DNA from: Candidatus Nanosynbacter lyticus
GTDB taxonomy: Bacteria; Patescibacteriota; Saccharimonadia; Saccharimonadales; Saccharimonadaceae
Direction of reading: 5' to 3'
NCBI RefSeq assembly: GCF_030253515.1
Contig: NZ_CP124549.1
Coordinates: 60,001 to 92,000 of the forward strand
DNA length: 32,000 bases
This document shows positions 2,073 through 32,000 of this stretch, piece after piece. Each line of letters opens with the position of its first letter. Positions within the stretch are counted from its first letter, which is position 1. Under the pieces are notes generated by a model, which worked only from the letters and a program-made list of their open reading frames with translations, was not told the origin of the DNA and searched no databases. The position numbers and the translations under genes were made by a program.

Positions 2073-2081
2073 TGCTACAAT
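2073..2081 (+). promoter_or_regulatory. Extended -10 promoter (TGcTACAAT) for mscL
   Basis: TGCTACAAT lies 30 nt upstream of ATG 2112, followed by a leader with SD AAGGAG at 2101-2106. Confidence 0.5.
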
Positions 2082-2111
2082 CAAGGTACTACTTAACATA
2101 AAGGAGTTTTT

Positions 2112-2546
2112 ATGGCAGAGAAAAAAGTAGCCAAAAAGGCGACTACTAAACAGACGACCGCTAAGAAATCAATTGTGAAAAAACCAAGTGTGGCGGCACT
2201 GAAAGAAAAAGCGGCAGCAGTCAAGGGCCATGGCGGCGGTTTTATGACATTTATCCGTGAGCAGGGCGTGGTTGGCTTGGCTGTCGGTCTGGCGATCGGT
2301 ACTGCGGCTGGTGACACGGTCAAGAAATTGGTGACAGCATTTATCGATCCGCTCGTTCAGCTGATTGTCGGCTCGCAGGAAGGTTTGCAGGCAGCATCAT
2401 TCTCCGTTGAAATTGCTGGTCGTAAGGGTGAGTTTCTGTACGGCGCATTCGTTAGCTCGCTGATCACTTTGTTGGCGGTGGCGTTTGTGGTGTATGCAAT
2501 TATTCACTTTTTGAAGCTGGATAAATTAGACAAGAAAAAAGACTAA
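2112..2546 (+). CDS. mscL: Large-conductance mechanosensitive channel MscL with a Lys-rich N-terminal extension
   Basis: GFMTFIREQGVVGLAVGLAIGTAAGDTVKKLVTAFIDPLV matches the MscL N-terminal helix/TM1 signature (F..F..RGNV.DLAVG..IG.AF...V.S.V.D...P). A second TM (LITLLAVAFVVYAIIHF) follows. About 40 residues of Lys/Ala/Thr-rich sequence precede the conserved core. SD AAGGAG. Confidence 0.88.
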   Translation: MAEKKVAKKATTKQTTAKKSIVKKPSVAALKEKAAAVKGHGGGFMTFIREQGVVGLAVGLAIGTAAGDTVKKLVTAFIDPLVQLIVGSQEGLQAASFSVEIAGRKGEFLYGAFVSSLITLLAVAFVVYAIIHFLKLDKLDKKKD

Positions 2547-2563
2547 TTGGGCCTTGAAAACAG

Positions 2564-2592
2564 ATCCGCCGGATAAATACGGCGGATTTTTT
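2564..2592. terminator. Rho-independent terminator between convergent mscL and pyrH
   Basis: ATCCGCCG (2564-2571) pairs with CGGCGGAT (2580-2587) across an 8-nt loop, followed by a T-run to 2592. It lies 18 nt after the mscL stop and 49 nt beyond the pyrH stop. Confidence 0.8.
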
Positions 2593-2640: not shown

Positions 2641-3345
2641 CTAGGAAATCAGCGTGCCGACTATCTCGCCGCGAGCGGCCCGGGCGATGTTGCCGTCGGT
2701 GAGCAGGTCGCAGATGATGACCGGTTTGTTCTCCTCGGCGGCCAGTCCAATGGCGGCCTTGTCCATAACAGTGATGTCAGGATTGGTGAGAATTTGGTCG
2801 TAATGAAGACGATCGAACTTAATGGCGTCAGGGAATTTAGCTGGGTCTTTGTCGTATACACCGTCGACTTTCGTCGTTTTGATCACAACGTCGCACTGCA
2901 TCTCGAGGGCGAGGTTGAGAGCGGCGGTATCGGTAGTCAGGAAGGGTCGGCCAGTGCCACAGGCAACGATGACGATGCGGCCCTTCTTGATATGACTAAG
3001 GGCGCGGCGGAAGGTGTATTGGTCGATGAATTGATTAATCTCCACGGTGGACAGGGCGCGGGTCGGTAGGGCAGCGTCGTTGAACACATCGGCCAGAGCG
3101 ATGGCGTTCATCAGAGTAGAGAGCATGCCGATGTTATGGGCCGAGACGGGCTGGATACCGTGGCCAATGATTTGGTTGCCGCGGACATAATTGCCGCCGC
3201 CAACCATGATGACGACTTCGGCGCCGCTGCTCAAGGCCGGTTTGATTTGTTCGGCGATCCAACGAGCCCGCTTAGGATCGAAGCCGCTGGCGAACTCGCC
3301 CTGGAGCTGCTCGCCGGATAATTTGAGAAGGATACGTTTTGCCAT
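2641..3345 (-). CDS. pyrH: UMP kinase
   Basis: Motifs KRILLKLSGE, VVIMVGGGN, GRPFLTTDTAAL and KVDGVYDKDP. The ORF-track start at 3405 reads through the promoter. I place the start at ATG 3345 (MAKRILLKLSGE), 6 nt downstream of a TGcTACACT box. Confidence 0.93.
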   Translation of the reverse strand: MAKRILLKLSGEQLQGEFASGFDPKRARWIAEQIKPALSSGAEVVIMVGGGNYVRGNQIIGHGIQPVSAHNIGMLSTLMNAIALADVFNDAALPTRALSTVEINQFIDQYTFRRALSHIKKGRIVIVACGTGRPFLTTDTAALNLALEMQCDVVIKTTKVDGVYDKDPAKFPDAIKFDRLHYDQILTNPDITVMDKAAIGLAAEENKPVIICDLLTDGNIARAARGEIVGTLIS

Positions 3346-3388
3346 AACTTTAGTGTAGCATGCTGCAAGGAAGTGGTAAAATAGAAAC
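3346..3388. promoter_or_regulatory. 43-bp divergent spacer with two extended -10 boxes (pyrH and orn), both leaderless-type
   Basis: Minus strand: TGcTACACT (3360-3352), a 6-nt spacer, then ATG 3345. Plus strand: TGgTAAAAT (3374-3382), a 6-nt spacer, then ATG 3389. Neither spacer has room for a Shine-Dalgarno sequence. Confidence 0.6.
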
Positions 3389-3943
3389 ATGAAAGCGAAA
3401 TTCAAGCCGCAGCGAATTTTATGGCTGGATATGGAAATGACCGGGCTAGATCCGGTGGAGGATTTTCCGATTGAGGTGGCGATGATTGTGACCGACTGGG
3501 GGTTTACGGAAATTGCTCATTTTGAGGGTGCAGCGCACTGGTGTAGCAAGAAAATGCAAGCACGATTTGATAAGAATAAATCATTTTGGTATGGCGATGG
3601 TGCGGCTGCGCGAGAGCAGCTGATAGCGCAAAACAAGATCACCAAGACAACTAAGGCGCAGCTCGAGCGCGATATCTTGGCATTTTTGGATGAGTATTTT
3701 GATGATGCACCAATTTTATTGGCGGGTAATTCAATTCATCAAGACCGGCGCTTTATCGATCATTGGTTCAAGAAATTTTCAAAACGCCTCCACTACCGAA
3801 TGCTGGATGTTAGTGCCTGGAAGGTGGTATTTGAAGGTAAATATGGCAAAAAATTTGCCAAGCCAGAGGATCATCGAGCGCTGGAGGACATCCGCGGTAG
3901 TATTCAAGAATTACAATATTATTTGAAGAAGGTGAAACGCTAG
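3389..3943 (+). CDS. orn: Oligoribonuclease (DEDDh 3'-5' exoribonuclease)
   Basis: Motifs ILWLDMEMTGLDP (Exo I), LAGNSIHQDRRFI (Exo II), HYRMLDVS and HRALEDIRGSIQEL (Exo III with His). 184 aa is typical for Orn. Confidence 0.9.
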   Translation: MKAKFKPQRILWLDMEMTGLDPVEDFPIEVAMIVTDWGFTEIAHFEGAAHWCSKKMQARFDKNKSFWYGDGAAAREQLIAQNKITKTTKAQLERDILAFLDEYFDDAPILLAGNSIHQDRRFIDHWFKKFSKRLHYRMLDVSAWKVVFEGKYGKKFAKPEDHRALEDIRGSIQELQYYLKKVKR

Positions 3944-4743: not shown

Positions 4744-4744
4744 T

Positions 4745-4752
4745 TGTATACT
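4745..4752 (+). promoter_or_regulatory. -10 box TGTATACT, leaderless-type, for the MmcQ/YjbR-like gene
   Basis: The box starts 2 nt after the upstream stop (TGA 4741-4743). A 6-nt spacer (GAGAGC) separates it from ATG 4759. Confidence 0.55.
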
Positions 4753-4758
4753 GAGAGC

Positions 4759-5094
4759 ATGACCCATAAACAATTTGAAGAGTTTATCCTGAGTTTGCCC
4801 GGTGTGTGGCTGGATTATCCGTTTGGCGAGGATGTTGCGGTGTATAAGTTTGGTAAGAATAATGACGGCGCAGGGAAGATGGTAGCTCTGGTGGCTGAGG
4901 GCTCGAAGCCGCTCAGGGTTAGTCTGAAGTGCGACCCACTACTGGCTGAGAATCTCCGCGAGAAGTACGAGACGGTGCTGCCGGGGTATCATCTGAATAA
5001 GAAGCATTGGAATACCATCATTTGCTCGGGGCAATTGAGTGATGAAGAAATTTTTGATTTGGTGCGGCTAAGTTATCAGCTGGTGGCGGAGTGA
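4759..5094 (+). CDS. MmcQ/YjbR family (predicted DNA-binding) protein
   Basis: LPGVWLDYPFGEDVAVYKFG...KMVALV...LKCDP..AENLREKYE.VLPGYHLNKKHWNTI matches the YjbR/MmcQ family pattern. The ORF-track TTG at 4744 lies inside the -10 box, so I use ATG 4759. Confidence 0.82.
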   Translation: MTHKQFEEFILSLPGVWLDYPFGEDVAVYKFGKNNDGAGKMVALVAEGSKPLRVSLKCDPLLAENLREKYETVLPGYHLNKKHWNTIICSGQLSDEEIFDLVRLSYQLVAE

Positions 5095-5165: not shown

Positions 5166-5786
5166 TTATGACTTGTCCGAATCACCGGTGATCGCCATGA
5201 GCTGCTTGCGTACGTTGGTGAGGTCGGAAATGGTTTTCTCAAGAAAGTCAATTGTGCTTTTGCTGCGCGAACCCTCTTTGATACGATTCATCATCAAGAG
5301 CGTATCAGCCAGTTCGGTATTCATGGTGTAGGCATAGGTGTTGTCGAGGTCGGCATTGAGATAGGCCTCCTCAAATTTTTCCTCGAGTTTTGTCGGTGGG
5401 TCGAGCGCGGTGATGTTTTTGAGGTCTTTTTTGACGTCGATGTTCTGGGCGGCGGCCGGCGTCTCGATGGACTTATTGGCAGTGGTGAGTACGGCCGTGA
5501 GCGAGCTATTAGCGTCTTGGAGCTGGCTGGATTTGAGGCGGGAAGTAAATTTCTCAGAGACGGTTTGGAGTTTTTGTAGACGAGCAATGAGGTTATTTAA
5601 TGAAGGGCCGCGGGAGGCGTTTTGGGTGGCGTTGATGATAAAGGCCAGGCCGAGTAGTCCAATGATGCCGAGAATGAGCAAGATAATCTTTGTCTTTTTA
5701 TCAAAGCCTTGCGGTGCTGGCGGTGCAGAAATTTGATTGAGATAATCAATACCGGTTGGCACGTCGTAGTCATTGTGTGGCTGCAT
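5166..5786 (-). CDS. Hypothetical single-pass membrane protein (N-in anchor, helical ectodomain)
   Basis: 206-aa ORF with one TM (IILLILGIIGLLGLAFII) after a ~30-aa N-terminus. The remainder is polar and helical. Leaderless-type promoter upstream. Confidence 0.75.
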   Translation of the reverse strand: MQPHNDYDVPTGIDYLNQISAPPAPQGFDKKTKIILLILGIIGLLGLAFIINATQNASRGPSLNNLIARLQKLQTVSEKFTSRLKSSQLQDANSSLTAVLTTANKSIETPAAAQNIDVKKDLKNITALDPPTKLEEKFEEAYLNADLDNTYAYTMNTELADTLLMMNRIKEGSRSKSTIDFLEKTISDLTNVRKQLMAITGDSDKS

Positions 5787-5840
5787 ATACCCATTAAAGC
5801 ATAAACAACAACAGAGGTAAAGAGTGATATAATAAAAACC
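5787..5840. promoter_or_regulatory. 54-bp divergent spacer with two extended -10 boxes (membrane protein gene and dnaG)
   Basis: Minus strand: TGcTTTAAT (5801-5793), a 6-nt spacer, then ATG 5786. Plus strand: TGaTATAAT (5825-5833), a 7-nt spacer, then ATG 5841. Confidence 0.6.
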
Positions 5841-7574
5841 ATGAATGATGCCAAAGAAGAAGTGCGGGCGCGGCTAAATATCGAGGACGTGATCGGCGAA
5901 TATGTTCAGCTGAAGCGGGCGGGTCGTAATTTGAAGGGACTGAGTCCATTCACTGATGAGCGGACGCCGAGTTTTATGGTCAGTCCGGAAAAGCAGATTT
6001 GGCATGATTTTTCTTCGGGCAAGGGAGGCGATATTTTTACGTTCGTGATGCTGGTGGAGGGGATGGATTTCCGGCAGGCGTTGGAACATTTGGCGCGCAA
6101 GGCAGGCGTGGATTTGAGTTTGTTTTCTCATGGTGATGGGCGCACGGCCAAGCGGCGGGCGCGGGCAGGGGAGGCGCTGAAATTGGCCGCGAATTTCTAT
6201 CAGCAAAATTTGGTGAAAAATTCGGCAGCACGAGAATACGCGGTGAAAAAACGGCGGCTGAATCGGCAGACGATCGGTGATTTTATCATCGGCTATGCGC
6301 CGGATCAGGGCGATGCGCTGACGAAAGCGCTGGAAAAGCGGGGATTTTCGCGCCGGGAACTGGCTGACGCGGGGCTGGTGAATCGGTTTGGCGGCGACTT
6401 GTTTCGGGGGCGGATGATGGTGGTCTTGAGTGATAGCAGCGGCGAGGTGGTTGGCTTTACGGGGCGAATTATTCGTGATGATCCGCGCGCGCCAAAGTAT
6501 CTGAACACGCCGCAGACCCTGCTATTTGATAAATCGCGCCATATTTTTGGGCTGTATCAGGCGAAAGAGGCGATTCGTAGGAGCGACGCGGCGGTGATTG
6601 TCGAGGGGAATCTGGACGTGGTTAGTAGCCACCAAGCTGGCGTCAAAAACGTGGTGGCGACGGCGGGAACGGCGATGACCCTGCAACATCTGAAGGTGCT
6701 GAGCCGGTTGGCGGGGCGGATTCGTGTGGCATTTGATGGCGACCGGGCGGGCGTGAGCGCGACGGAGCGGGCCATCAATTTGGCGCAGGAAATTGGTGTG
6801 GAATTAGAGGTGGTGAGTCTGCCGGACGGCGTGAAAGACCCGGATGAATTGATCCAAAAAGACCCAGCCCTGTGGCAAGCGGCGGTTGAGCGGGCGCAGC
6901 CGGCGGTGGACTGGGTAATCGCTCGGCACGCCGAGATGGAAGATTTGGCGACGGCCGAAGGGAAGCGGCGATTTTCGACAACTGCATTGAGAATCGTGCG
7001 CGGCCTGAAAGATCCGGTGGAGCAAGAGCATTACTTGGCGGTAATTTCTAAAGAAACTGGTGCTAGTCTCGCGGTCTTGCGAGCGAAGCTTGGCGCTGAG
7101 AGATCAACGCCGCCCGCTCAGCTTAAAAAACCAAAGATTGAAAAGGCGACTCCGAGTAAACCTCGTGACGAATTAGCGGACATCATCGTCGGTCTGGCGC
7201 TTAGTCAGCCGTCGACTCGGCGCTGGGTCGGGGCGCTCGAGGCGGCTAGCTTGGACGAGCCAGCTCGAGCAGTGGTGACGGCGCTGCAGGCTGAGCCGCT
7301 ACTTGACATAGAAAAATTACCCCGTCCCTTGCAAAAATTTGAGCAGTATGTGAAAATAGTACAGTTAAAAAGTGAACGCCGCTACATGGACTGGGAGCCG
7401 GAAGCTCTGGACAGTGAAATGGCGCGTTTGGTAAAGCAATTGATACGTAAACACCGCGACACAAAAAAACAACAATTATTAGAAGATTTGCGTGAGGCTG
7501 AGGAGCTCAGCGATGAGGCGCGGGCGCGTATCTTGCGGCAGCAGCTGAACGCACTGATTAAGGAGAATGTGTGA
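5841..7574 (+). CDS. dnaG: DNA primase DnaG (zinc-ribbon ligands all substituted)
   Basis: N-terminal primase zinc-binding-domain homology ([36 protein letters not shown]). TOPRIM region ([32 protein letters not shown]). Its stop TGA 7572-7574 overlaps the rpoD GTG. Confidence 0.93.
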
Positions 7575-8597: not shown

Positions 8598-9185
8598 TTA
8601 ACACTGCTCAGGTGCCTTACAAAAATGCTCGTGGTGAGTGACGGCCTCTAGCTGAGCGTACAGTTTATCTAGCCCACGGTCGTTCATCACAAAATAGTCG
8701 GCAATGGCGATTGGCCCGCCTTTTTCTAGGTTTTCAATTTCTGACCAATCGCGCTGGTCGACTTCGCGTGGCTGCATCGGCCGCTCGGGGCGTTTGGCCA
8801 TGCGTTGATAGCGCAGGTGCTTTGGTGTGACGACGGCGATGACGGACATCTGGCCGGGGAATTCGTGCTTGAGGATTTTATACTCGCTCCAAGTGTATAA
8901 GCCATCCAGGACAATTTTATTTTGTCCGGCATTGATCAAATCGCGAATGTTCTTAATTACGCGCTTGATAACGAAATCTTTGCCTTCGCGCTGGCGGATT
9001 TCTTCGCGGAATTTTTGCTGATTGTCCCAGGTTGGTTCAATACCAGCTTCTTCCATGGCTTTGTAAATAACACCGCCAAAATAAACTTTGGGGAAGCCTT
9101 TTTTTGTTAAATATTCGACGGCCGAACTTTTGCCGCTACCAGCCAGACCGACGAGGGCGATGATTTTTGCGTGTGGTTGTGTCAT
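8598..9185 (-). CDS. P-loop nucleotide kinase (dephospho-CoA kinase / UPF0200 adenylate-kinase-like)
   Basis: Walker A IIALVGLAGSGKSS at the N-terminus. The layout (GIEPTWDN...FREEIRQREG, VLDGLYTWSEY, RYQRMAKR...P, ERD..E...GGPIAIADY) resembles small dephospho-CoA-kinase-like kinases. The exact substrate is not determinable from the sequence. Confidence 0.7.
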   Translation of the reverse strand: MTQPHAKIIALVGLAGSGKSSAVEYLTKKGFPKVYFGGVIYKAMEEAGIEPTWDNQQKFREEIRQREGKDFVIKRVIKNIRDLINAGQNKIVLDGLYTWSEYKILKHEFPGQMSVIAVVTPKHLRYQRMAKRPERPMQPREVDQRDWSEIENLEKGGPIAIADYFVMNDRGLDKLYAQLEAVTHHEHFCKAPEQC

Positions 9186-9219
9186 GTTGCTAGTATAGCA
9201 AATTTGCTATACTGAGTAT
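9186..9219. promoter_or_regulatory. 34-bp divergent spacer: two back-to-back TGcTATACT boxes forming a perfect 22-bp palindrome
   Basis: The layout is CAT-gttgct-AGTATAgCAaatTGcTATACT-gagtat-ATG. The palindrome AGTATAGCAAATTTGCTATACT spans 9192-9213. Each -10 box lies 6 nt from its ATG (9185 on minus, 9220 on plus). Confidence 0.65.
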
Positions 9220-11754
9220 ATGAAACGTTTGGCGGTTATCGACGGAAAATCAGTGTTTTACCGAGGGTATTATGCCATGCCGGGGCTCAGTACGGCGGAT
9301 GGTACGCCGACTGGCGGGGTGTATGGGTTTGTAAGTTTGGCGATTGAGCTGATCAAAAAATTAGAGCCGGATTATGTGGCGGTGGCATGGGACAAGCGCG
9401 GCACCAACATCCGTAAGCGGCGGGAACTATATCCAGACTACAAGGCCGGTCGCAAGCCAGCACCGGATGATTTTTATCAGCAAATTCCGATTTTGATGGA
9501 ACTGCTGGATGCCTTTGGCTGGCCGCTGTATGAACTCGATGATTATGAGGCGGACGATATCATGGGCGCGTTTGCCAGGCAAGCGGAGGCGCGCGGCGTG
9601 CAGACCTGTCTGCTGACGTCGGATTTGGATGCGCTGCAATTGGTGTCGCCGCTGACCAAAGTCTACGCCATGAAAAATGGTCTGAGGAACATAGAGGAAT
9701 TTACGGCGGAATATTTTGAACAAAAATATGGCATTCGGACGGATCAGTTTTTGGATTTGAAGGCGCTGAAGGGTGATTCCAGCGACAATTTGCCGGGCGT
9801 GCCGGGAGTTGGTGAAAAGACAGCGGTGAAATTATTGCAAGCATATGACACGCTGGACGGCGTGTATGCGCATGTGGATGAGCAAACAGGCGCCCTACGG
9901 ACAAAGCTTGAAGCGGGCCGCGAGTCGGCGTATTTGACCAAGCAGGTGGCGGAGATTTGGACGGACGCACCGGTGGAGCTAGACTGGGAGGTGGCTGATG
10001 TTAACGACTGCGACTTTGCTAGAGTGGCGGAGATTTTGCGGAAACTGGAGTTTCATTCGCTGATTGGGCGATTGCCGAAGACAATGCAGGCGGTGGATGA
10101 GGCAGTGGAGACGGCGGAGTTGGAGTTGCCACGTGTTGAAAATTTACCGGCTGAGCCGCTGTTTGAGGCAGAAAATAGTATCTATATTGATCCATCGGAG
10201 CCGGACATAGTCTATATTAATTCCAAGCCTGGCGTGGCGTGGCGGGCGAAGATGAGTGAAATTGGCTGGTCGGTTTGGCAATTGTTGGCGCAGGGTGTGG
10301 TGATCGCGGTGGACGTCAAGGGGCTGTATCACGCGCTGGATACTCACGGTGTGACGGTGCGATTTCATGAGGTGTGGGATGTTGGGCAGGCGGCGTTTTT
10401 GATCGATCCACTGAGGCGCGACCGTCGTTTAGCGGCGCTGGCGGGCGATTTTTCTGAGGATAATTCCGCGTTGCGGCAGTTGGCGCGGCTTCGTCAAATT
10501 TACCGCCAGCAGCAGGATTATATGGCGGCGCATCAGCAGATTGCCAGGGTGCTTCGCGAGTTTGATTTTCCAGTGATTTGGCCGCTGTTTCAGATGGAAA
10601 AGCGCGGCATGAAGCTGGACACAGTGCTGCTTGAACAGATGGGTGAGGAGCTGAGGGCGGAGGTGAGCCAGCTTGAACAACAAATGTATACGATGGCTGG
10701 GCGTGAATTCAATGCCGCCAGCCCGGCACAGCTGTCTGAGGTGTTATTTACCAAACTTCAGCTGCCGACGACCGGTATCAAAAAAGGTAAAACCGGCTAT
10801 TCGACGGGGCAGAAAGAGCTGGATAAGCTGCGCGGGCGACACCCGATCATTGAGCTGATTGAGCGGTATCGGGAGCTGACTAAATTGATCAGCACCTACA
10901 TTGAAGCGCTGCCGAAATTGGTGGCTGAGGACGGTCGGATTCACACCACGTTTAATCAAAACGTCACCAGCACCGGGCGGTTGAGTAGTACCAATCCCAA
11001 CCTACAGAATATTCCGGTGCGCACAGAACTGGGCCGGAAGATTCGTCAGGCGTTTGTGCCCAGTCAGGGCAAGGTGTTTGTTGGTGTGGATTATTCACAA
11101 TTTGAGCTGCGGCTGGCGGCGGCACTGGCGGGCGATGAGCAGCTGATTAACGATTTTAATAGCGACGTGGATATTCATACCAAGACGGCGGCCGAGACCT
11201 ACGGCGTGCCAATGGCTGAGGTGACAAAATTGCAGCGGCGCGCGGCCAAGGTGATCAACTTTGGTGTGCTGTACGGCATGAGTCCGCACGGCTTGGCGGC
11301 AGCTACCGGCATGACCTTTACTGAGGCGAAACAGTTTATTGAACACTATTTTGCGGTACGCCAGCCAATCCGCCAGTATTTGGACACAATTTTAGTTCAA
11401 GCGCGTGAACGAGGTTTTGTCGAGACCTATTTTGGTCGGCGCCGACCAACGCCCGACGTTAAGTCGAGCAACTTTATGGTGCGTTCAGCGGCGGAGCGGG
11501 CGGCGATGAACATGCCGATTCAGGGAACGGAAGCGGATTTGATGAAGCTGGCGATGATTCGGCTGGAGGACAAGTTGGCTGGGCTGGCTGAGCCAGTCCT
11601 GCAGGTTCACGACTCAATTTTGGTGGAATGCGCGCCGGAAGACGCCGAGCGAGTCGGTGAAATCATGCGCAGAGAAATGGAAGGTATTTGTCCGGAGTTG
11701 CCAATTCGATTGAAGGTTGATATTGAAGTGGGGTATAATTGGGGTAGTCTATAA
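9220..11754 (+). CDS. polA: DNA polymerase I (5' nuclease + degenerate 3'-5' exo-like linker + family A polymerase)
   Basis: 5' nuclease/H3TH motifs (YKAGRK, DLKALKGDSSDNLPGVPGVGEKTA). Polymerase motif A VGVDYSQFELRLAA, motif B RRAAKVINFGVLYGM, motif C VLQVHDSILVE. The Exo I position reads AVDVKG rather than D.E, so proofreading is probably absent. Confidence 0.95.
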   Translation: MKRLAVIDGKSVFYRGYYAMPGLSTADGTPTGGVYGFVSLAIELIKKLEPDYVAVAWDKRGTNIRKRRELYPDYKAGRKPAPDDFYQQIPILMELLDAFGWPLYELDDYEADDIMGAFARQAEARGVQTCLLTSDLDALQLVSPLTKVYAMKNGLRNIEEFTAEYFEQKYGIRTDQFLDLKALKGDSSDNLPGVPGVGEKTAVKLLQAYDTLDGVYAHVDEQTGALRTKLEAGRESAYLTKQVAEIWTDAPVELDWEVADVNDCDFARVAEILRKLEFHSLIGRLPKTMQAVDEAVETAELELPRVENLPAEPLFEAENSIYIDPSEPDIVYINSKPGVAWRAKMSEIGWSVWQLLAQGVVIAVDVKGLYHALDTHGVTVRFHEVWDVGQAAFLIDPLRRDRRLAALAGDFSEDNSALRQLARLRQIYRQQQDYMAAHQQIARVLREFDFPVIWPLFQMEKRGMKLDTVLLEQMGEELRAEVSQLEQQMYTMAGREFNAASPAQLSEVLFTKLQLPTTGIKKGKTGYSTGQKELDKLRGRHPIIELIERYRELTKLISTYIEALPKLVAEDGRIHTTFNQNVTSTGRLSSTNPNLQNIPVRTELGRKIRQAFVPSQGKVFVGVDYSQFELRLAAALAGDEQLINDFNSDVDIHTKTAAETYGVPMAEVTKLQRRAAKVINFGVLYGMSPHGLAAATGMTFTEAKQFIEHYFAVRQPIRQYLDTILVQARERGFVETYFGRRRPTPDVKSSNFMVRSAAERAAMNMPIQGTEADLMKLAMIRLEDKLAGLAEPVLQVHDSILVECAPEDAERVGEIMRREMEGICPELPIRLKVDIEVGYNWGSL

Positions 11755-11766
11755 AAAGGAGGGTTA

Positions 11767-21617: not shown

Positions 21618-21626
21618 GACGAGGCT

Positions 21627-22547: not shown

Positions 22548-22553
22548 TTGTTA

Positions 22554-22660: not shown

Positions 22661-22667
22661 ACAAAGT

Positions 22668-24091: not shown

Positions 24092-24100
24092 TGATATAAT
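24092..24100 (+). promoter_or_regulatory. Extended -10 TGaTATAAT for pnp, giving a ~100-nt leader
   Basis: TGATATAAT at 24092-24100. ATG 24206 is preceded by SD GAGAGGA. Confidence 0.5.
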
Positions 24101-24205
24101 GGATGGTACGAAGCATAACCCGCAGACGGTGATGGATGTGTGGTGTGTTGATAGTAAACCAGCACGCGTACACCTGTTACTGTCTTTGCGAGAAAGAGAG
24201 GATCT

Positions 24206-26323
24206 ATGGCAATTATTAATCCAAGTGGTAAGGAGATTTTTTCGGTTACGACGGAATTATGCGGGCGGCCGTTGACGCTGGAGGTCAACCGTGTTGGTTT
24301 TCGGACGACCGGTAGTGTGCTGGTGCGCTATGGTGATACGGTGGTTTTGGGCAGTGCTCAGGTGGGCAGCCGGCCGGTGCAGCTAGATTATTTCCCGCTG
24401 TCGATTGATTATGAAGAACGGTTTTATGCGGCGGGTAAAATTTCTGGCTCGCGGTTTATTAAGCGCGAGGGTCGGCCGAGCGACGAGGCGGTGCTGATCG
24501 GCCGGTTGATCGACCGTCCGATTCGGCCGCTGTTTCCAAAGGGCTACCGCCAAGAAGTGCAAGTAGTGGCGACAGTCTTAAGCATGGATCCGGATTTCCG
24601 CCCGGACGTGGTGGCGATGATTGCAGCGTCGAGTGCCTTGATGCTGACCGGCACGCCGTTTGACGGGCCGGTGGCGGGCCTGCGGGTGGGTCGTGTGAAC
24701 GGCGAGTTTAAGGCCTTTTTGACGCCGGAGGAGCGTGAGCAATCTGATTTGGATCTGGTGGTGGCTGGTATCGAGAGTGGTATCACCATGGTGGAGGCCG
24801 GCGCTCGGGAGGTGTCAGAAGAGGTGATCGTCGATGCGATGGTGTGGGCGCACCAGATGATGCAGCCAGCGATTCAGGTGCAGCGAGAGTTGGCAGCCAA
24901 AGTGGCGCCAGCCGCACAAGAATATGAATTAGTTTTACCTGATGAAGCAATTCAGCAGACGGCTGATGCGTGGGTTGATGGCAAGCTGGGCGAGAAAATT
25001 CGCCGACCATATCCGGAGCGCAACGAAATGATTAGCAATATTTGCGCTGAATTTCATGAAGCGATGGCCAAAAAACTTGGCATAGACGAAGAAGAATATA
25101 GTGAAGTTCGCAATGATTATGATGAGGCGTTCACATTGGCGCTACACAAAGATGTGCGCCGCGGTATCGTTGAGGAAGGTAAGCGCCCAGATGGCCGCTC
25201 CTTGACGGAAATTCGCCCGCTCAGCTCAGAAGTTGGTTTGCTGCCACGAGCGCACGGCTCGAGCTTGTTTACTCGCGGCGTGACTCAAGGTATGAATATC
25301 GTGACTTTAGCGCCGTTGAGTTACGCGCAGCTGGTTGATACTATGGAGGTCAACGACGGCGAACGGCGCTACATGCATCATTACAATGCGCCGGGCTATA
25401 CGGTTGGCGAGGTCAAGCGGATGGGCAGCCCGGGCCGGCGCGAGATTGGCCACGGCTACTTGGCGGAGCGAGCCTTGACGCCGGTGTTGCCGAGCGAAGA
25501 AGACTTCCCGTACGCCATTCGCAGCGTTACCGAAATTATGAGCCAGAACGGTTCGACGTCGATGGCAGCGACCTGTTCGAGCTGTCTGGCGTTGATGGAT
25601 GCTGGCGTGCCTCTCTCGGCACCAGTTAGCGGTATCGCCATGGGTCTGATGATGGACGGTGATACACCGTACGTATTGAGCGATATTGCCGATGCCGAGG
25701 ACTTTGCCGGTGACATGGACTTCAAGGTGACTGGTACAGCCAAGGGCATCACGGCGCTGCAGATGGATATGAAGGTGCATGGTTTGCCGGTGGCAGTGCT
25801 GCGCCAAGCGATTGAGCAGAGTAAGGCTGGCCGGGCATTTATCCTTGACCATATGCTAAGTATTTTGCCAGCGCCGCGCGAAGTACTCAGCCCATACGCG
25901 CCGCGGATTGAAAAGCTAAAAATTGACCCAGATAAAATCGGTGCGGTCATTGGCAAGGGCGGCGAGGTGATTAACAAGATCACCAGCGAGACTGGCGCCG
26001 AGGTTGATATTAAGGAAGACGGCTTGATCACCATCGCCAGTCCGAACGGCGAATCAATTGAGAAGGCGCTCAACTGGATTAAAAGCCTGGTCGAAGAGCC
26101 AGAAGTTGGTAAAATCTACGAAGGTACGGTAGTCAGCATCAAAGATTTCGGGGCCTTCGTGAATATTTTGCCGGGGATTGACGGGATGGTGCATATCTCG
26201 AAGCTGGCCGATCATCGCGTGGCTAAGGTGACTGATGTGGTCAAGGAAGGACAAACCGTTCGCGTGAAAATCACTGGTATTGATGAGCGCGGTAAGATTA
26301 ACTTGACGATGATCGGGTTGTAA
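24206..26323 (+). CDS. pnp: Polyribonucleotide nucleotidyltransferase (PNPase)
   Basis: Two RNase PH domains (FPLSIDYEERFYAAGKI.GSRFIKREGRPS, RPDGRSLTEIRPL, SSLFTRG), a KH domain (IGAVIGKGGEVINKI) and an S1 domain (YEGTVVSIKDFGAFVNI). 705 aa. Confidence 0.96.
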   Translation: MAIINPSGKEIFSVTTELCGRPLTLEVNRVGFRTTGSVLVRYGDTVVLGSAQVGSRPVQLDYFPLSIDYEERFYAAGKISGSRFIKREGRPSDEAVLIGRLIDRPIRPLFPKGYRQEVQVVATVLSMDPDFRPDVVAMIAASSALMLTGTPFDGPVAGLRVGRVNGEFKAFLTPEEREQSDLDLVVAGIESGITMVEAGAREVSEEVIVDAMVWAHQMMQPAIQVQRELAAKVAPAAQEYELVLPDEAIQQTADAWVDGKLGEKIRRPYPERNEMISNICAEFHEAMAKKLGIDEEEYSEVRNDYDEAFTLALHKDVRRGIVEEGKRPDGRSLTEIRPLSSEVGLLPRAHGSSLFTRGVTQGMNIVTLAPLSYAQLVDTMEVNDGERRYMHHYNAPGYTVGEVKRMGSPGRREIGHGYLAERALTPVLPSEEDFPYAIRSVTEIMSQNGSTSMAATCSSCLALMDAGVPLSAPVSGIAMGLMMDGDTPYVLSDIADAEDFAGDMDFKVTGTAKGITALQMDMKVHGLPVAVLRQAIEQSKAGRAFILDHMLSILPAPREVLSPYAPRIEKLKIDPDKIGAVIGKGGEVINKITSETGAEVDIKEDGLITIASPNGESIEKALNWIKSLVEEPEVGKIYEGTVVSIKDFGAFVNILPGIDGMVHISKLADHRVAKVTDVVKEGQTVRVKITGIDERGKINLTMIGL

Positions 26324-26383
26324 CTTTTGCTTTTTAGCAAAGTACGCTACAATAGGAGAATATAAGACTAATTGAGGGGGATT

Positions 26384-27262
26384 ATGGACGATAAGAATAA
26401 TAAAAACGTACCACAACCGACAGCAACACCGCCAGCAGCAAATGAGCAGGCTGCTCCAGTAGTACCACAGCCAGTACCATCGGCTCCACAATCGCAGCAG
26501 CCGCTGCAGCAGGGTGCGCCAATGCAGCCCAAAAAGGGCTTGAGCAAGGGTGCGCTATGGGGTATCATCGGTGGCTCAATTGGTTTGATAGTCATTGTCG
26601 TTGGTATCGTGTTGGCAGTTATATTCCTTGGTGGGCCATCAAAGGCTGATTACCAAGAAGCTGCTAAGGCCATGAAAGAGTTTGACGGCAACAGCCTCAA
26701 CTCGGCACTCAAGTCGTCGAATGCTGATAACGCAAAGAAGCTGATTGAAGAGGCGGTGGAGCGTGCTGATACAATGATGAAAAAACTTGATGCATCAAAG
26801 ATTATGCGCGACGAGGAGACTAAAAAATCTTTCGGTGAATACAAAACTGCCTACGAAAAAGTACGCCCGAATTTGCTTGCCATTGCCAGTCTGATAGGAG
26901 ATATGAAGGACTTTTCTAAGAAGTGCGCACCAAGCTTCTTCGGCTATGTCGGTAAGTCAGGAGACGAAGTAAAGAAGCTCTACGATGAAAAGATGAGCGA
27001 CTGCTATAAGCTACTCGATAACGTTGCCAAATCAGAACAGAAAGAAGCACAGGACTTTGGCAAGCAAATGAAAGAGTATTACAAGTTGCTGGGTGACTAC
27101 TTCGTGGCACGCGCTAATAAAGACTACACTACTCGGGTACCGCGTCTACCGTCGGGTAGCTCAAATCCACTGGCCGGCTTTGCTAAAAAGATTCAAGAGT
27201 CAAACCTACAGAAACACGAGCGAGAATTCATCAACTTAGTGAAAGAAAAAGCTGAAAAGTAA
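26384..27262 (+). CDS. Hypothetical single-pass membrane protein with a Pro/Gln-rich N-terminus and a Lys/Glu-rich helical ectodomain
   Basis: ATG 26384 lies 3 nt after SD GAGGGGG; the ORF-track TTG 26372 overlaps that SD. TM ALWGIIGGSIGLIVIVVGIVLAVIFL. No enzymatic motif. Confidence 0.75.
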   Translation: MDDKNNKNVPQPTATPPAANEQAAPVVPQPVPSAPQSQQPLQQGAPMQPKKGLSKGALWGIIGGSIGLIVIVVGIVLAVIFLGGPSKADYQEAAKAMKEFDGNSLNSALKSSNADNAKKLIEEAVERADTMMKKLDASKIMRDEETKKSFGEYKTAYEKVRPNLLAIASLIGDMKDFSKKCAPSFFGYVGKSGDEVKKLYDEKMSDCYKLLDNVAKSEQKEAQDFGKQMKEYYKLLGDYFVARANKDYTTRVPRLPSGSSNPLAGFAKKIQESNLQKHEREFINLVKEKAEK

Positions 27263-27282: not shown

Positions 27283-27312
27283 AAAACACCTCGCATAGTG
27301 ACGAGGTGTTTT
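27283..27312 (+). terminator. Rho-independent terminator that overlaps the next promoter
   Basis: AAAACACCTCG (27283-27293) pairs with CGAGGTGTTTT (27302-27312) across an 8-nt loop. The T-tail runs directly into TGTATAAT. Confidence 0.8.
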
Positions 27313-27319
27313 GTATAAT
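27312..27319 (+). promoter_or_regulatory. -10 box TGTATAAT, leaderless-type, for the UDG gene
   Basis: A 6-nt spacer (AGAAAT) separates it from ATG 27326. Confidence 0.55.
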
Positions 27320-27325
27320 AGAAAT

Positions 27326-27904
27326 ATGGATGAGGCAGCGCAACTGGAGGTTTTGGCGGCAGAGATTATCGCTGGTGATATTTGTCATGACTTGGCGCTG
27401 CAGGCGACGCAGCTGGTGATGGGTGATGGTCGGGCTGACGCAGACATTGTATTTATCGGTGAAGCGCCAGGAAAAAACGAAGACCTTCAGGGCAAACCAT
27501 TCGTTGGGGCAGCTGGTACATTTCTTGACGAGATGTTAGCCGCAGCCCAGTTACGTCGTCAAGATGTCTATATCACCAATATCGTTAAATATCGGCCGCC
27601 AAACAATCGTGACCCGCTGCCGGAGGAGAAGCGCGCTTTTTGGCCGTATTTGATGCGCCAATTGCAAATTATTCAACCAAAGGTAGTCATCACACTGGGT
27701 CGGCATAGTGGCATGGCATTCATTCCTGACTTGGCGATCTCGCGTGATCATGGCAATCCGCGCTGGGCACAGTTCAACGGTTTGAAGTTCTTGGTAATTC
27801 CGCTGTATCATCCGGCAGCGGCGCTGTATAACGGGGCGTTGCGGCAGACGTTAATTGATGATTTTGTGCGGGCAGCACAACTGGCCGTCCAAGCCAGCGC
27901 TTAG
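27326..27904 (+). CDS. Uracil-DNA glycosylase superfamily protein, family-4-type motifs but lacking the Fe-S cysteines
   Basis: IVFIGEAPGKNEDLQGKPFVGAAGTFLDEML (GEAPG...E...G.PFVG.AG motif A), NIVKYRPP.NR.P and LYHPAAALYN (motif B). There is only one Cys in 192 aa. The ORF-track TTG 27311 lies in the promoter. Confidence 0.85.
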   Translation: MDEAAQLEVLAAEIIAGDICHDLALQATQLVMGDGRADADIVFIGEAPGKNEDLQGKPFVGAAGTFLDEMLAAAQLRRQDVYITNIVKYRPPNNRDPLPEEKRAFWPYLMRQLQIIQPKVVITLGRHSGMAFIPDLAISRDHGNPRWAQFNGLKFLVIPLYHPAAALYNGALRQTLIDDFVRAAQLAVQASA

Positions 27905-27910: not shown

Positions 27911-27940
27911 TTGACAAGAGCTGGCATCCTGTGCTAGAAT
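27911..27940 (+). promoter_or_regulatory. Sigma-70-type promoter for RNase J, giving a ~100-nt leader
   Basis: TTGACA (27911-27916), an 18-nt spacer ending in TGc, then TAGAAT (27935-27940). SD GGAG at 28031-28034 precedes ATG 28045. Confidence 0.6.
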
Positions 27941-28044
27941 GGTCTTAATTGTTAAGGGATAGATTTGTTGTACGTTGCCCCCGTGTCTATCACTTGTCAT
28001 TCTAATTTTGCAAGGTATATTTTTATAAAAGGAGAACAATACGC

Positions 28045-30213
28045 ATGGGCCAGAGACGACTTGCGACGCCGAAGGGCGATGATCAGTCAAAACGACCAGC
28101 TGCCAAAAAAAGTAACACAGCGGTGATGAATAGTACCACTACTCGCAAGGGCGAGGTGTTTCGGGCGCAGCGGCGGACGAGCGAGAATGTTAATCTCAGG
28201 GCGTCGCAGCACGTGATCGATATTCCGGTCAATAAATCAGTTTACAACGGCTATGGCGGCGAGCAATTTAGCGCCAAAATGCAGCCAAAACGCACTCGCG
28301 GCGGCAAGCCAAAACTACGGATTATCCCAATCGGCGGTGTCGGCGAAATGGGCATCGGAAAAAACATGAACGCCATTGAGTATGACGATGAAATCATCGT
28401 TGTGGACATGGGTTTCCTGTTTCCGGGTAGTGATTATCCAGGTATCAACTACATCACGCCAGATATCACCTGGCTGGAGGAAAATAAACATAAAATCAAG
28501 GCGCATGTGTTCACCCACGGGCACCTTGATCACATCGGTTCTTTCCGGCACTTTATTCACCGAATTCCAGCGCCGGTGTACGGGTCAAAGTTCACTATCG
28601 GTATGCTAGATAAGTCGATGGCTGATGCGGATACCGATTTTCAGCCAGATTTTCGGGTGATGGATCCATTGAGCCATGAAATTATTCAGGTGTCGAAGCA
28701 TTTTTCCGTGGAGTTGGTACGGGTTAATCACTCAATTCCAGATTCAACGGCGGTGATTATTCGAACCCCGCTGGGTGTGATTATTGACTCTGGCGACTGG
28801 CGATTTGAGGAAAGTCCGGTTGACGGTCAGAAATTTGACCTCAAGCGGATGACTGAAGTGGCGTCCAAAGAAGGCGTCTTAATGTTCATGAACGAATCGA
28901 CCAACTGTGAATCGGCCGGTACGCATACTCACACCGAGTTTGATATTCAATATTCCATCGGCCAGGTGATGGATAAATTCAGTAACAGCCGAGTGATTTT
29001 AAGCTGTTTCTCGTCGCAGGTGCATCGTTTGCAATTGATTTTGGAAGAAGCGCATAAGCATGGACGCAAGGTGGCGTTTGCGGGATTTTCGATGATCCAG
29101 AACTTGGAAGTGGCGCTGCGTTCAGGCACCATTAAGATCCCGAAAAATACTGTCATGAAGATGGAAGATATCATCAAGCTGCCGGATAGCCAGATCACCG
29201 TGGTTTGTACCGGTTCGCAGGGTGAGTTTAATGCCGTGCTCAGTCGTATGGCGACTGGCGCGCATAAATACATGAAGATTAAAGGCTCTGACGTGGTGGT
29301 GTTTAGCTCTAATCCGATTCCGGGCAATGAGAAAAACGTAGTGCGAACCGTTGATGGTTTGATGCGCGAAGGTTCTGATGTGATTCAGAACGGCAAGACA
29401 CACTTGACGGGGATTGGGCCGCTGCACTTGTCGGGACATGGTTATTACGATGATCACGTCAAGTTGATTAACGCGTTGAACCCAACATACTACATGCCAA
29501 TTCACGGTGAATTCCACATGCTGGTGCACAATGCGCGGCTGGCAGAGAAAGAGTGTGGTATTCCGAGGAAGAATATCTTTGTGTGCGACGCTGGCGATAT
29601 TATTGAAATTGATATTGAACGGCAGGCTAAGAAAGCCGGTCGAATTCAGGCTGGCGGCGTGATGTATGATGATACGGGCGCAGTGGTTTCCGAAGTGGTG
29701 CTGAAAGACCGCATTCACATGTCTCAAGAGGGAATGTTTGTGGTGGTATTGACGGTGCAACGCGGCACCGGGCGGTTACTAACCAGTCCAGACATTATTT
29801 CCCGCGGTTTCATCTACCTGCGTGATTCCGAGGAATTGATGAATATGATTCGCCAGTACTTGAAGCAAAAAGCGGCGCGCAGTTTTGCTGGCAAGTACGA
29901 CCTTGATGTAGTAAAGAAAGAAATTAAGGACGAAGTTACGCATATTTTGTACGACCAGACGCGCCGGACACCGATTGTTATTCCGGTAATTAATGAGGTG
30001 GGTGGCTTGAAGACAGTAAAATCGGCCGCTACCTCGAGTGTTTCTACCACAAAAGCACCGGCGCGCAGTAAAAAGGTTGTGACTAACTCGGCGGCGGAAC
30101 CGAAAATGACGCTACCAACTATGCCGCGCCGCCGTTTCCCGCGCCGCCAGGTGCCAGACACCGAGGCGAATGATACCAAGGCTCGAGAGGTCGGCCGAGT
30201 GCGCGCGTACTAG
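28045..30213 (+). CDS. rnj: Ribonuclease J (metallo-beta-lactamase / beta-CASP) with basic N- and C-terminal extensions
   Basis: LRIIPIGGVGEMGIGKNMNAIEY, VFTHGHLDHIG (HxHxDH), the beta-CASP region and HLSGHG. About 90 aa of basic sequence precede the core, and ~60 aa of basic tail follow it. Confidence 0.93.
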   Translation: MGQRRLATPKGDDQSKRPAAKKSNTAVMNSTTTRKGEVFRAQRRTSENVNLRASQHVIDIPVNKSVYNGYGGEQFSAKMQPKRTRGGKPKLRIIPIGGVGEMGIGKNMNAIEYDDEIIVVDMGFLFPGSDYPGINYITPDITWLEENKHKIKAHVFTHGHLDHIGSFRHFIHRIPAPVYGSKFTIGMLDKSMADADTDFQPDFRVMDPLSHEIIQVSKHFSVELVRVNHSIPDSTAVIIRTPLGVIIDSGDWRFEESPVDGQKFDLKRMTEVASKEGVLMFMNESTNCESAGTHTHTEFDIQYSIGQVMDKFSNSRVILSCFSSQVHRLQLILEEAHKHGRKVAFAGFSMIQNLEVALRSGTIKIPKNTVMKMEDIIKLPDSQITVVCTGSQGEFNAVLSRMATGAHKYMKIKGSDVVVFSSNPIPGNEKNVVRTVDGLMREGSDVIQNGKTHLTGIGPLHLSGHGYYDDHVKLINALNPTYYMPIHGEFHMLVHNARLAEKECGIPRKNIFVCDAGDIIEIDIERQAKKAGRIQAGGVMYDDTGAVVSEVVLKDRIHMSQEGMFVVVLTVQRGTGRLLTSPDIISRGFIYLRDSEELMNMIRQYLKQKAARSFAGKYDLDVVKKEIKDEVTHILYDQTRRTPIVIPVINEVGGLKTVKSAATSSVSTTKAPARSKKVVTNSAAEPKMTLPTMPRRRFPRRQVPDTEANDTKAREVGRVRAY

Positions 30214-30240
30214 CTCACGCTTGCTATTTGTTGTAAAATA

Positions 30241-30274
30241 TGCTACAATGTGAATGTCGGTAAAGTGATATAAT
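30241..30274 (+). promoter_or_regulatory. Tandem extended -10 boxes upstream of ftsK
   Basis: TGcTACAAT (30241-30249) and TGaTATAAT (30266-30274). The second lies 10 nt from ATG 30285. Confidence 0.45.
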
Positions 30275-30284
30275 AAAAGTAGTT

Positions 30285-32000
30285 ATGCCAAAAAAACGAA
30301 AATCTACCCGCAAGAAATCAGTTTCCACAGCTCCAAAGCATGATGTGCCGAGCGGCTTTTGGGCGCAAGTCGGCGCGGTGCTTCTCGTTGTGTTGTCGCT
30401 TCTTCTGATGGTGGCGTGGTTTGGTGTTGGTGGCCCGGTGCTGGAGTGGCTACATAAGGCGACTCTGAGCATGCTTGGTTACGCGATGTATGGGCTGCCG
30501 ATTTTGCTGATATATATTGCTGTGGAGATTTTCCGGGCGGAGAATAATCGGTTGCCGCTGGCGATGAAATTAGCAGCCATCCTCGAGGTGGTGTGGTTGT
30601 CTGGTTTGTTTGGATTATTAAAGACACCAACCCGCCCAAATGCTGGTGGATTTATCGGTGATACGGCCAATCGGGCGATGAGCGCCATGGTCGACCCGGG
30701 CATCGCTGCTTTGATATATGTGGTCCTCATCATTATTACCGCGCTATTTATTACTCAGACGTCGCCGTTTATGGTGATCAAGAAAATCGCCGAGGCGCTC
30801 AAGCGCGACCACTCCGAGGAGGATAACAATGCGGCGGTGATGAAGAAGGCGGCTCGTGAAGATGCGGCCAGCGCCAAATCATCGAGCGACATCAAGTTGA
30901 ATGCCGGCGTCCCAACCGTCGATCCGGTTACGCCAAAGGATAAAAAGGCATCGCCGTTGAGCAGTCTGCGTGGTAGTGTAGCGCGGGATAAGGCAGCTGA
31001 GGAGCAGGCAGCACTGGTGGCGGCACACGACCCGAATTGGCAGGCACCGAGCCTTGATCTATTGGAGAAGAAGCAAAGTCCAGCTGATGCTGGTGATATT
31101 CGGCAGAATGCGCAGATTATTCATGATACCTTGGCAGAATTTAACATTGATGTGGAGATGGAAGACGCAAATATTGGACCAAAGGTGACGCAGTATACCT
31201 TGCGGCCGCCGAGTGGTGTGAAATTGACACGCATCACGGCACTGGAGACGAATATTGCTTTGAATCTGGCGGCACAGAGCTTGCGGATTGAAGCGCCAAT
31301 TCCTGGGCAAAAAGCCGTTGGTATTGAGGTGCCAAATCGCCGAGCGGCTGATGTGCGGCTGTATGGCGTGTTGGATTCTAAGCAGTGGAAGAATGCTCGC
31401 GAGCCGCTGAGCTTTGCAATTGGTAAGGACATCTCTGGTGAAGCAGTGGTCGGTGAGCTCAACAAAATGCCACATATGTTGATCGCTGGACAGACTGGTT
31501 CTGGTAAGTCGGTGATGATTAATACCCTACTGACCAGTTTGCTATATCGCAACAGCCCGAGCGATATGAAGTTGATTTTGGTTGACCCAAAGCAGGTGGA
31601 AATGGCGCCGTATGAAGACATTCCACATTTGCTGACCCCGGTGATTACTGAGCCAGAAAAGACTATTTCGGCCTTGAAATGGGCGGTCAATGAGATGGAG
31701 CGGCGCTATAAATTACTGGCGGCGGAGAAGATTCGTGATATTAAAGGGTATAATCAACGGCTAGCCACGCGAGCTAAAAAAATCCCGGTAGCGGACGCTG
31801 ATGGCAACATTCAACAGCACGAAGACGGGGCGATGCCGTACATCGTTATTGTAATTGATGAGCTAGCCGATTTGATGATGGTGGCAGCACGCGACGTCGA
31901 GGCACTGATTGTTCGCTTGGCGCAGAAAGCGCGGGCGGTGGGTATTCACTTGGTCCTGGCAACGCAGCGGCCAAGTGTTGACGTAATTACTGGCCTGATC
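30285..32000 (+). CDS. ftsK: DNA translocase FtsK/SpoIIIE, N-terminal and motor part (3' end beyond the window)
   Basis: Absent from the ORF track because no stop is reached. My own translation from ATG 30285 gives MPKKRKSTRKK, several TM segments, then QNAQIIHDTLAEFNIDVEM, Walker A MLIAGQTGSGKSVMIN, LILVDPKQVEM, Walker B YIVIVIDELADLMM and HLVLATQRPSVDVITG. Confidence 0.93.
   Translation, partial: MPKKRKSTRKKSVSTAPKHDVPSGFWAQVGAVLLVVLSLLLMVAWFGVGGPVLEWLHKATLSMLGYAMYGLPILLIYIAVEIFRAENNRLPLAMKLAAILEVVWLSGLFGLLKTPTRPNAGGFIGDTANRAMSAMVDPGIAALIYVVLIIITALFITQTSPFMVIKKIAEALKRDHSEEDNNAAVMKKAAREDAASAKSSSDIKLNAGVPTVDPVTPKDKKASPLSSLRGSVARDKAAEEQAALVAAHDPNWQAPSLDLLEKKQSPADAGDIRQNAQIIHDTLAEFNIDVEMEDANIGPKVTQYTLRPPSGVKLTRITALETNIALNLAAQSLRIEAPIPGQKAVGIEVPNRRAADVRLYGVLDSKQWKNAREPLSFAIGKDISGEAVVGELNKMPHMLIAGQTGSGKSVMINTLLTSLLYRNSPSDMKLILVDPKQVEMAPYEDIPHLLTPVITEPEKTISALKWAVNEMERRYKLLAAEKIRDIKGYNQRLATRAKKIPVADADGNIQQHEDGAMPYIVIVIDELADLMMVAARDVEALIVRLAQKARAVGIHLVLATQRPSVDVITGLI

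Follow-up and report, generated by a model that had tools for sequence, protein, structure and literature searches.

We have analyzed the gene starts in a 32,000-nt stretch of the genome of Candidatus Nanosynbacter lyticus (contig NZ_CP124549.1, positions 60,001 to 92,000), referred to below as the window. Nanosynbacter is an oral TM7 epibiont belonging to the candidate phyla radiation (CPR)/Patescibacteria. In fourteen genes of the window a box of the -10 type stands 6-8 nt upstream of the start codon, and what is established directly covers the motif and where it lies, its statistics and conservation, and the correctness of the start codons behind it. We consider it very likely that extended -10 promoters at these genes yield leaderless mRNAs, and that Shine-Dalgarno (SD) sequences are used at operon-internal genes and at genes with long leaders. 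An earlier note on this DNA had proposed that two initiation modes coexist; this is supported by the bimodal distances between box and start, the enrichment of the box, its conservation and the behaviour of SD-led control genes.

The box sequences, coordinates and spacer lengths listed for the fourteen genes in the earlier note all match the letters of the window. Aligned with one another, the boxes read T-15 G-14 n T A t A a/c T-7, and the -35 region shows no more than a faint TTG. The label "extended -10", which had been applied to all fourteen, fits ten of them (pyrH, orn, dnaG, the kinase gene, polA, the 13663 gene, holA, and the pilin, sortase and 22668 genes), where TG stands one base before TAnnnT to give the canonical TGnTAnnnT. 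It does not fit the other four. At yjbR, the 15234 gene and UDG the TG is one base out, abutting the hexamer directly (TGTATACT and similar) and thus outside the T-15 G-14 register, and these boxes are plain -10 hexamers; the fourth, at a membrane gene, has an atypical hexamer. The housekeeping sigma factor RpoD encoded in the window (7571-8536) matches the Pfam domains Sigma70_r2, r3, r4 and r1_2, and so includes region 3. Gene names were checked by Pfam (PyrH, RNase_T exonuclease, YjbR, DnaG, RpoD, PolA, GmrSD nuclease, Fpg, HolA, S20, TruB, type IV pilin, S15, sortase, PNPase and UDG), and the identities assigned previously were borne out.

Statistics were computed over the 31 gene starts of the window, which has a GC content of ~50%. 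Expected counts came from two sources: all remaining ATG and GTG codons of the window, and 5000 shuffles of the upstream regions. Thirteen of the 31 starts are preceded by TAnnnT at 6-8 nt, the spacer being exactly 6 nt in ten; the other ATG/GTG codons lead one to expect 0.89 and the shuffled regions 2.75 (no more than 10 in any of the 5000 shuffles; binomial P = 1e-12). A genome-wide scan of boxes near starts against shuffled controls had been put forward as a check; on the starts of this window an excess is present. For the longer TGnTAnnnT the count is 10 of 31, against 0.08 and 0.20 expected (P = 7e-19). The profile has a sharp spike at spacer 6 and no broad enrichment. Across the start-set and first-ATG counts, about 34-42% of the window genes have a box, and the codons that follow the fourteen boxes are 12 ATG, 2 GTG and no TTG. 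A generic two-hexamer scan for -35/-10 promoters found 19 sites in the window versus 16 +/- 3.6 in shuffles, which is no enrichment, because the -35 elements of these promoters are poor; it recovered only the promoters of the 15234, GmrSD and mscL genes. A histogram of spacers made without annotation, using the loose TANNNT, showed no peak in the window alone, which at 32 kb is too small; the peak is visible only with 1.4 Mb of loci or with awareness of ORFs (open reading frames). A statistic based on ATG codons opening a 100-aa ORF was dropped in favour of a first-ATG rule, since in-frame internal ATGs give it a background with 3-nt periodicity, in E. coli too.

Box-to-start distances in the window are bimodal: genes that lack an SD have 6-10 nt, and genes that possess one have 21-105 nt. 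At the box-led genes merely 6-10 nt separate box and start and no SD lies upstream, which agrees with the earlier statement that such spacers have no space for one. AAGGAG-like sites are found 3-10 nt upstream of the start in ten other window genes, and the SDs previously claimed for mscL, the 4030 gene, rpoD, the nuclease gene, the 23298 gene, pnp, the 26384 gene, rnj and rpsT are all present. The same type of box recurs 21-105 nt upstream of the SD-led mscL, 4030, GmrSD, 17175, pnp, 26384 and rnj genes. Three divergent gene pairs have their starts close together: 34 bp apart for kinase/polA, 43 bp for pyrH/orn and 54 bp for the membrane gene and dnaG. Between the kinase gene and polA the -35 region of each promoter overlaps the -10 of the other, and the two back-to-back boxes within 34 bp leave no space for leaders. 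This 34-bp spacer (9183-9222) is a near-perfect palindrome containing the two TGCTATACT boxes.

The distance from box to start is kept in orthologues whose proteins are as little as 38-58% identical, and an unrelated flank upstream of the box, the result of a different neighbour gene, does not alter this. Orthologues were taken from 80 related loci and anchored on their aligned first residue, and the counts given here are of distinct contexts with TAnnnT at 5-9 nt. The PolA relatives in a species-representative genome collection, ranging from 96% down to 58% identity, are all from Candidatus Saccharibacteria/Nanosynbacter. On the minus strand, pyrH (3343..3360; box TGCTACACT at 3352-3360, ATG 3343-3345, 6-nt spacer) keeps its box at 6 nt in 16 of 16 contexts. 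The plus-strand orn, with TGGTAAAAT 6 nt before ATG 3389 (3374..3391), the first start codon of its ORF, has it at 6-7 nt in 32 of 36. At dnaG (plus strand, 5825..5843) the box TGATATAAT precedes ATG 5841 by 7 nt, and 31 of 32 contexts, down to 50% identity, have a box at 5-9 nt. The kinase gene (AAA_18; minus strand, 9183..9200) and polA (plus strand, 9205..9222) both have TGCTATACT 6 nt before the ATG, at 9192-9200 for ATG 9185 and at 9205-9213 for ATG 9220. The former box is kept in all 43 contexts, down to 38% identity, and the latter in 56 of 57, 52 of them at 6 nt; where the polA ATG is shifted by one codon (loci L058-L080), the box shifts along with it. Conservation is complete as well at the plus-strand 13663 gene (TGGTATAAT, 6 nt before ATG 13663; 13648..13665; 23/23), at the plus-strand 22668 gene (TGCTAAATT, 7 nt before ATG 22668; 22652..22670; TTGACT at -35; 4/4) and at the minus-strand sortase gene (21954-22547), in which TGCTACAAT at 22554-22562 lies 6 nt before GTG 22547 (22545..22562; 22/22). 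The type IV pilin gene (plus strand, TGCTATTAT, 6 nt before ATG 21080; 21065..21082) has its box in 14 of 15 contexts. The controls led by an SD gave TAnnnT at 5-9 nt in 1/18 contexts for rpsT, 0/11 for rpoD, 0/13 for pnp, 1/12 for mscL and 1/11 for the 4030 gene, and the 18636 gene, whose leader is SD-like, gave 1/23.

Two genes, yjbR and holA, are SD-led when directly behind another gene and box-led otherwise. yjbR (plus strand, 4744..4761) has the hexamer TATACT at 4747-4752, 6 nt before ATG 4759, within the final codons of the preceding gene; among its relatives it is box-led in 16 contexts and SD-led in 19, where GAAGGTG is found and the gene directly follows another. holA (plus strand, 16152..16169) has TGGTATAAT 6 nt before GTG 16167. 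It is box-led in 21 contexts, including this window, and in 20 others it is SD-coupled to the end of fpg via GGTGGAGG. In the window the variable 15234 gene separates holA from fpg. The arrangement was compared in loci L001, L006, L009, L040 and others: without the 15234 gene, holA abuts or runs into the stop of fpg and shows SD coupling, and with fpg and holA apart, a -10 box lies 6-9 nt upstream of holA. From this comparison it appears that the insertion moved an essential gene from one mode of initiation to the other.

An annotation-free count over 1.4 Mb of sequence from related loci gave 316 cases of TGNTANNNT-N6-ATG, as against about 60 at other spacers, and no N6 peak for GTG, TTG or CTG. 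We also applied a rule that is blind to the box, in which each long, non-overlapped ORF is represented by its first ATG and TAnnnT is scored at 5-8 nt. By this rule 34% of the window genes have a box, and in 17 divergent loci (PolA 58-64% identical) 37% of 354 genes do, with an excess in 17 of 17 loci and a peak of 73 at spacer 6 over a background of about 8. In E. coli, whose GC is similar, the figure was 5% of 82 genes and the profile was flat. Judged from the loci compared, box-led starts beside SD-led ones are the usual pattern in Candidatus Nanosynbacter lyticus and in Saccharibacteria as a whole, and not a peculiarity of this window.

The start codons on which these distances depend agree with several lines of evidence. 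For 8 of the 14 genes the ORF offers no possible start ahead of the codon next to the box; the remaining six have TTG or GTG codons as upstream alternatives, and in yjbR and UDG that TTG belongs to the box itself. Pfam domains begin within residues 1-6 in PyrH (AA_kinase, residue 3), DnaG (Zn-ribbon, residue 6), PolA (5'-3' exonuclease, residue 4) and the pilin (N_methyl motif, residue 1). The NCBI annotation, whose pipeline uses GeneMarkS-2+, has the box-adjacent start in all six genes checked (pyrH 234, yjbR 111, pilin 164, UDG 192, holA 303 and sortase 197 aa). The warning that six-frame ORFs over-extend through these promoters is true of naive ORF lists but not of existing annotation: the long six-frame forms of pyrH, yjbR, pilin and UDG were all absent from a collection of 15 billion proteins, and the idea that public annotations over-extend these ORFs was rejected, since for the genes looked up they do not.

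The two GTG starts had been described as unexpected for leaderless initiation. This is not borne out and we do not regard them as anomalous, given the precedent of mycobacteria, where a transcript must have an ATG or GTG at its 5' end to be translated and needs nothing more (PMC4633059). The GTG of holA is forced, because the reading frame has a stop 2 codons before it and the conserved N-terminus V/M-I-Y-L-x-x-G-(D/E)-N begins at this GTG; many SD-led relatives of holA also have GTG there. For the sortase gene a GTG start is likely from the alignment. It coincides with the N-termini of relatives (ATG or GTG) and retains the basic residues that precede the membrane helix, and in another lineage (L004, L011) the start is also GTG, 7 nt after TGTTATAAT.

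In the explanation that we propose, the boxes would be sigma-70 promoters of the extended -10 type with a weak -35, and RNA polymerase would start on the A (or G) of the start codon. With the modal 6-nt spacer the A of the ATG is the seventh base after the hexamer, and this is the canonical start position; a survey of promoters obtained its best model scores when the -10 element stood 7 bp ahead of the transcription start site (TSS) (PMC12641261). The resulting mRNAs would have neither 5' leader nor SD, and the ribosome, carrying initiator tRNA, would load directly onto the AUG or GUG at the 5' terminus. Spacers of 7-10 nt (dnaG, 22668, 15234, rpsO, ftsK) would give leaders of 1-4 nt, and genes that are operon-internal or lie behind leaders of 21-105 nt would use an SD of the AAGGAG type. 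The geometry fits a transcription start at this position, and conserved N-termini, domain boundaries and the agreement with public annotation lend indirect support to translation from that codon; both steps are inferred.

Several observations weigh against this explanation or limit its reach. The five genes with 7-10 nt spacers could have leaders of 1-4 nt rather than none, and the hexamer of the membrane gene has T at -11 instead of the normally invariant A. The sortase gene has a rival start, an ATG (Met16) behind a weak GGTG, and public calls dispute the matter, with NCBI giving 197 aa (GTG) and members of the same cluster in Logan/ENA 182 aa (Met16). The related loci share phylogeny with one another, and hence the raw counts overstate the number of independent observations. 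Lastly, the sole TSS set found for N. lyticus (strain TM7x) was derived indirectly from RNA-seq coverage and is called imprecise (PMC12641261). The preprint on the TM7x transcriptome contains nothing on TSSs, promoters or untranslated regions.

The boxes might be real but minor promoters, with most protein made from longer or read-through transcripts on which the AUG is translated internally, either independently of an SD or by coupling. Read-through is indeed likely at yjbR, pilin, 15234 and holA, which lie 15-51 nt behind a co-directional gene, and no terminator was identified upstream of these genes in a scan that covered 2000-17000 only, with pilin outside it. We nevertheless think this account quite unlikely. 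The divergent pairs pyrH/orn, membrane gene/dnaG, kinase/polA and sortase/22668 have no upstream co-directional gene to supply such transcripts. The exact 6-nt spacing is moreover kept across genomes whose upstream neighbours differ, so that the distance from box to start would itself seem to be under selection, and yjbR and holA gain an SD once they are operon-internal, which suggests that an internal AUG without an SD is insufficient.

Leadered mRNAs are also assumed if TAnnnT is a non-SD ribosome-binding site (RBS) or translation enhancer, like the Bacteroidetes-type "group B" of GeneMarkS-2. The motif is A/T-rich and is located where an RBS would be, and promoter and RBS signals share the 6-8 nt distance in that scheme (PMC6028130). 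Yet it includes TG at -15/-14 and fits the sigma-70 extended -10 consensus at each position, it occurs 21-105 nt upstream of SD-led genes where it could not act as an RBS, and it is absent or rare at the genes that have an SD in this window (0-1 of 11-23 contexts), whereas the group-B motif precedes all genes. Divergent pairs only 34-54 bp apart, in addition, have no space for a separate promoter plus leader, and we regard this possibility as highly improbable. An origin by chance, or as a by-product of A/T-rich intergenic DNA and of a reader choosing starts beside boxes, deserves almost no credence. Upstream regions are A/T-richer than coding DNA and the starts were chosen by eye, but the shuffled upstream regions averaged 2.75 boxes and never exceeded 10 where 13 were observed. 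The enrichment is a spike at spacer 6 and not a broad one, the first-ATG rule reproduces it without reference to boxes while E. coli at similar GC does not, and NCBI independently has the same starts in 6/6 genes. Chance is refuted by the shuffles, the orthologue counts and the box-blind test together.

The membrane gene (minus strand, 5784..5801) has TGC+TTTAAT at 5793-5801, 6 nt before ATG 5786, and its box is the weakest of the fourteen. In relatives TGnTTAAAT (hexamer TTAAAT) is kept across many Saccharibacteria with a spacer varying between 6 and 10 nt, an atypical yet conserved variant of the -10 hexamer. The 15234 gene (plus strand, 15197..15236) has the -35 hexamer TTGACA, 17 nt, and TAGAAT at 15220-15225, an 11/12 match to consensus, with 8 nt to ATG 15234; it is a variable gene with few relatives (5, weak) and no Pfam match. 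At UDG (plus strand, 27311..27328) the hexamer TATAAT at 27314-27319 is 6 nt before ATG 27326. Two looser cases had been cited, rpsO and ftsK, and their spacers are as stated (9 and 10 nt). The near-leaderless rpsO (plus strand, 21609..21629) has TGGTATAAT 9 nt before ATG 21627, and a box is present in all 20 distinct contexts from the genus, with a 9-nt spacer in 17, which suggests an mRNA with a conserved leader of 2-3 nt that is not strictly leaderless. For ftsK (plus strand, 30266..30287), TGATATAAT at 30266-30274 lies 10 nt before the ATG, which is placed at 30285, and a short leader is predicted. A second box, TGCTACAAT at 30241-30249, is found 16 nt upstream of the proximal one; ftsK may have tandem promoters, one of them yielding a leader of ~35 nt.

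Five SD-led genes on the plus strand provide a contrast. Of these, mscL (2073..2114) has the box TGCTACAAT at 2073-2081 and a 30-nt leader with AAGGAG before ATG 2112. The Pfam match to MscL starts at residue 43 of this 144-aa ORF (2112-2546) behind its AAGGAG, and either the protein has an N-terminal extension of ~40 aa or the true start is further downstream. The genes mscL and pyrH converge on a 10-bp GC-rich hairpin (2562-2589) with T-runs on both strands, which resembles an intrinsic terminator acting in both directions. The GmrSD nuclease gene (11731..11774) has TATAAT ending at 11739 and a 32-nt leader with AAGGAGG before GTG 11772. It belongs to a type IV restriction family and lies (11772-13544) within a low-GC island, where the 12-14 kb bin has a GC of 0.37 versus ~0.50 elsewhere, and a tblastn search found no match in any of the 80 related Saccharibacteria loci; from this it looks to have been recently acquired between polA and the 13663 gene. 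The 26384 gene (26345..26386) has the box CGCTACAAT and a 30-nt leader with GAGGGGG before ATG 26384. Leaders of ~105 nt follow clear extended -10 boxes at pnp (24092..24208; TGATATAAT at 24092-24100, ATG 24206, leader of 105 nt at 24101-24205 with the SD-like AGAGGA) and at rnj (27932..28047; TGCTAGAAT at 27932-27940, ATG 28045, leader of 104 nt at 27941-28044 with AAGGAG). An Rfam scan of the whole window at gathering threshold matched no RNA family, these two leaders included; they may be uncharacterised autoregulatory leaders.

In the full-text literature searched, which left most subscription journals and the relevant supplements outside, no paper linked leaderless initiation to Saccharibacteria, TM7x, Patescibacteria or CPR, and those co-occurrences of the terms that were checked concerned reference lists or unrelated matters. 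As far as that literature goes, the layout is not described for Saccharibacteria, though well known in Actinobacteria and Deinococcus, and no new mechanism is involved. It is conceivable, at a little under even chances in our estimate, that operon-first genes use leaderless initiation by default in all Saccharibacteria, and perhaps also in other CPR/Patescibacteria, with their reduced ribosomes; the box excess in 17/17 divergent loci supports the Saccharibacteria-wide part, while the CPR-wide part and a link to the hosts are conjecture. If true, this would be the third large bacterial lineage with a pervasive leaderless transcriptome, after Actinobacteria and Deinococcus-Thermus, and the epibionts would share their gene-start grammar with their actinobacterial hosts. 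To our knowledge no CPR bacteria other than Saccharibacteria include members that are in culture and amenable to genetics, and genetic work in naturally competent Saccharibacteria is on record (PMC10633639). For annotation, about a third to 40% of Saccharibacteria genes look leaderless, a guide to calling starts of the kind disputed in the sortase (197 versus 182 aa). An expression cassette could consist of TGnTATAAT, 6 nt and ATG, where an RBS should be unnecessary, and in transcript analyses 5' ends should be sought at start codons. A deep-branching lineage with reduced ribosomes would be added for the study of how leaderless initiation evolves, and yjbR and holA offer natural "toggle" cases, SD-led or apparently leaderless as the neighbour changes.

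Compared with known systems, the boxes share their consensus with the extended -10 promoters of E. coli (TGnTATAAT, contacted by sigma-70 region 3.0, with a dispensable -35), and likewise have a weak -35 and an RpoD with Pfam region 3. In E. coli, however, leaders of 20-50 nt are normal and leaderless mRNAs are rare and poorly translated (PMC4633059), whereas here the promoter abuts the start codon in ~40% of genes. Group B of GeneMarkS-2 (the FCB group/Bacteroidetes) resembles the window in having an A/T-rich motif a few nt upstream of starts and few SDs at those genes. Its motif, though, is not a promoter and precedes all genes, operon-internal ones included (PMC6028130), while here the motif is absent or rare at the genes that have an SD in this window (rpoD 0/11, rpsT 1/18, pnp 0/13), where canonical AAGGAG is found instead, and it also occurs far upstream of SD-led genes. 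Group C is defined by a Pribnow box 6-8 nt from the start, with SDs on the other genes and a predicted leaderless share of 25-50% of transcripts, and has been described for Actinobacteria (such as Mycobacterium, Corynebacterium and Streptomyces) and Deinococcus-Thermus (PMC6028130). The window differs from it in its GC of ~50%, which is not high, in the unusual regularity of the TGn extension (10/14) and in the rarity of GTG, with no N6-GTG peak in 1.4 Mb; Saccharibacteria (CPR/Patescibacteria), moreover, are not mentioned where the main text of PMC6028130 names group C taxa. Here too a Pribnow box lies 6-8 nt before operon-first genes, which lack an SD, and internal or leadered genes have one; the box is present at about 34-42% of genes, against the 25-50% of transcripts predicted leaderless in group C (PMC6028130); and ATG and GTG are both used but not TTG (PMC4633059). 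With the box before a substantial fraction of starts, the SD contrast and start codons confined to AUG and GUG, the pattern in these sequences is that of group C and not of group B, because the motif is absent or rare at the SD-led genes of the window.

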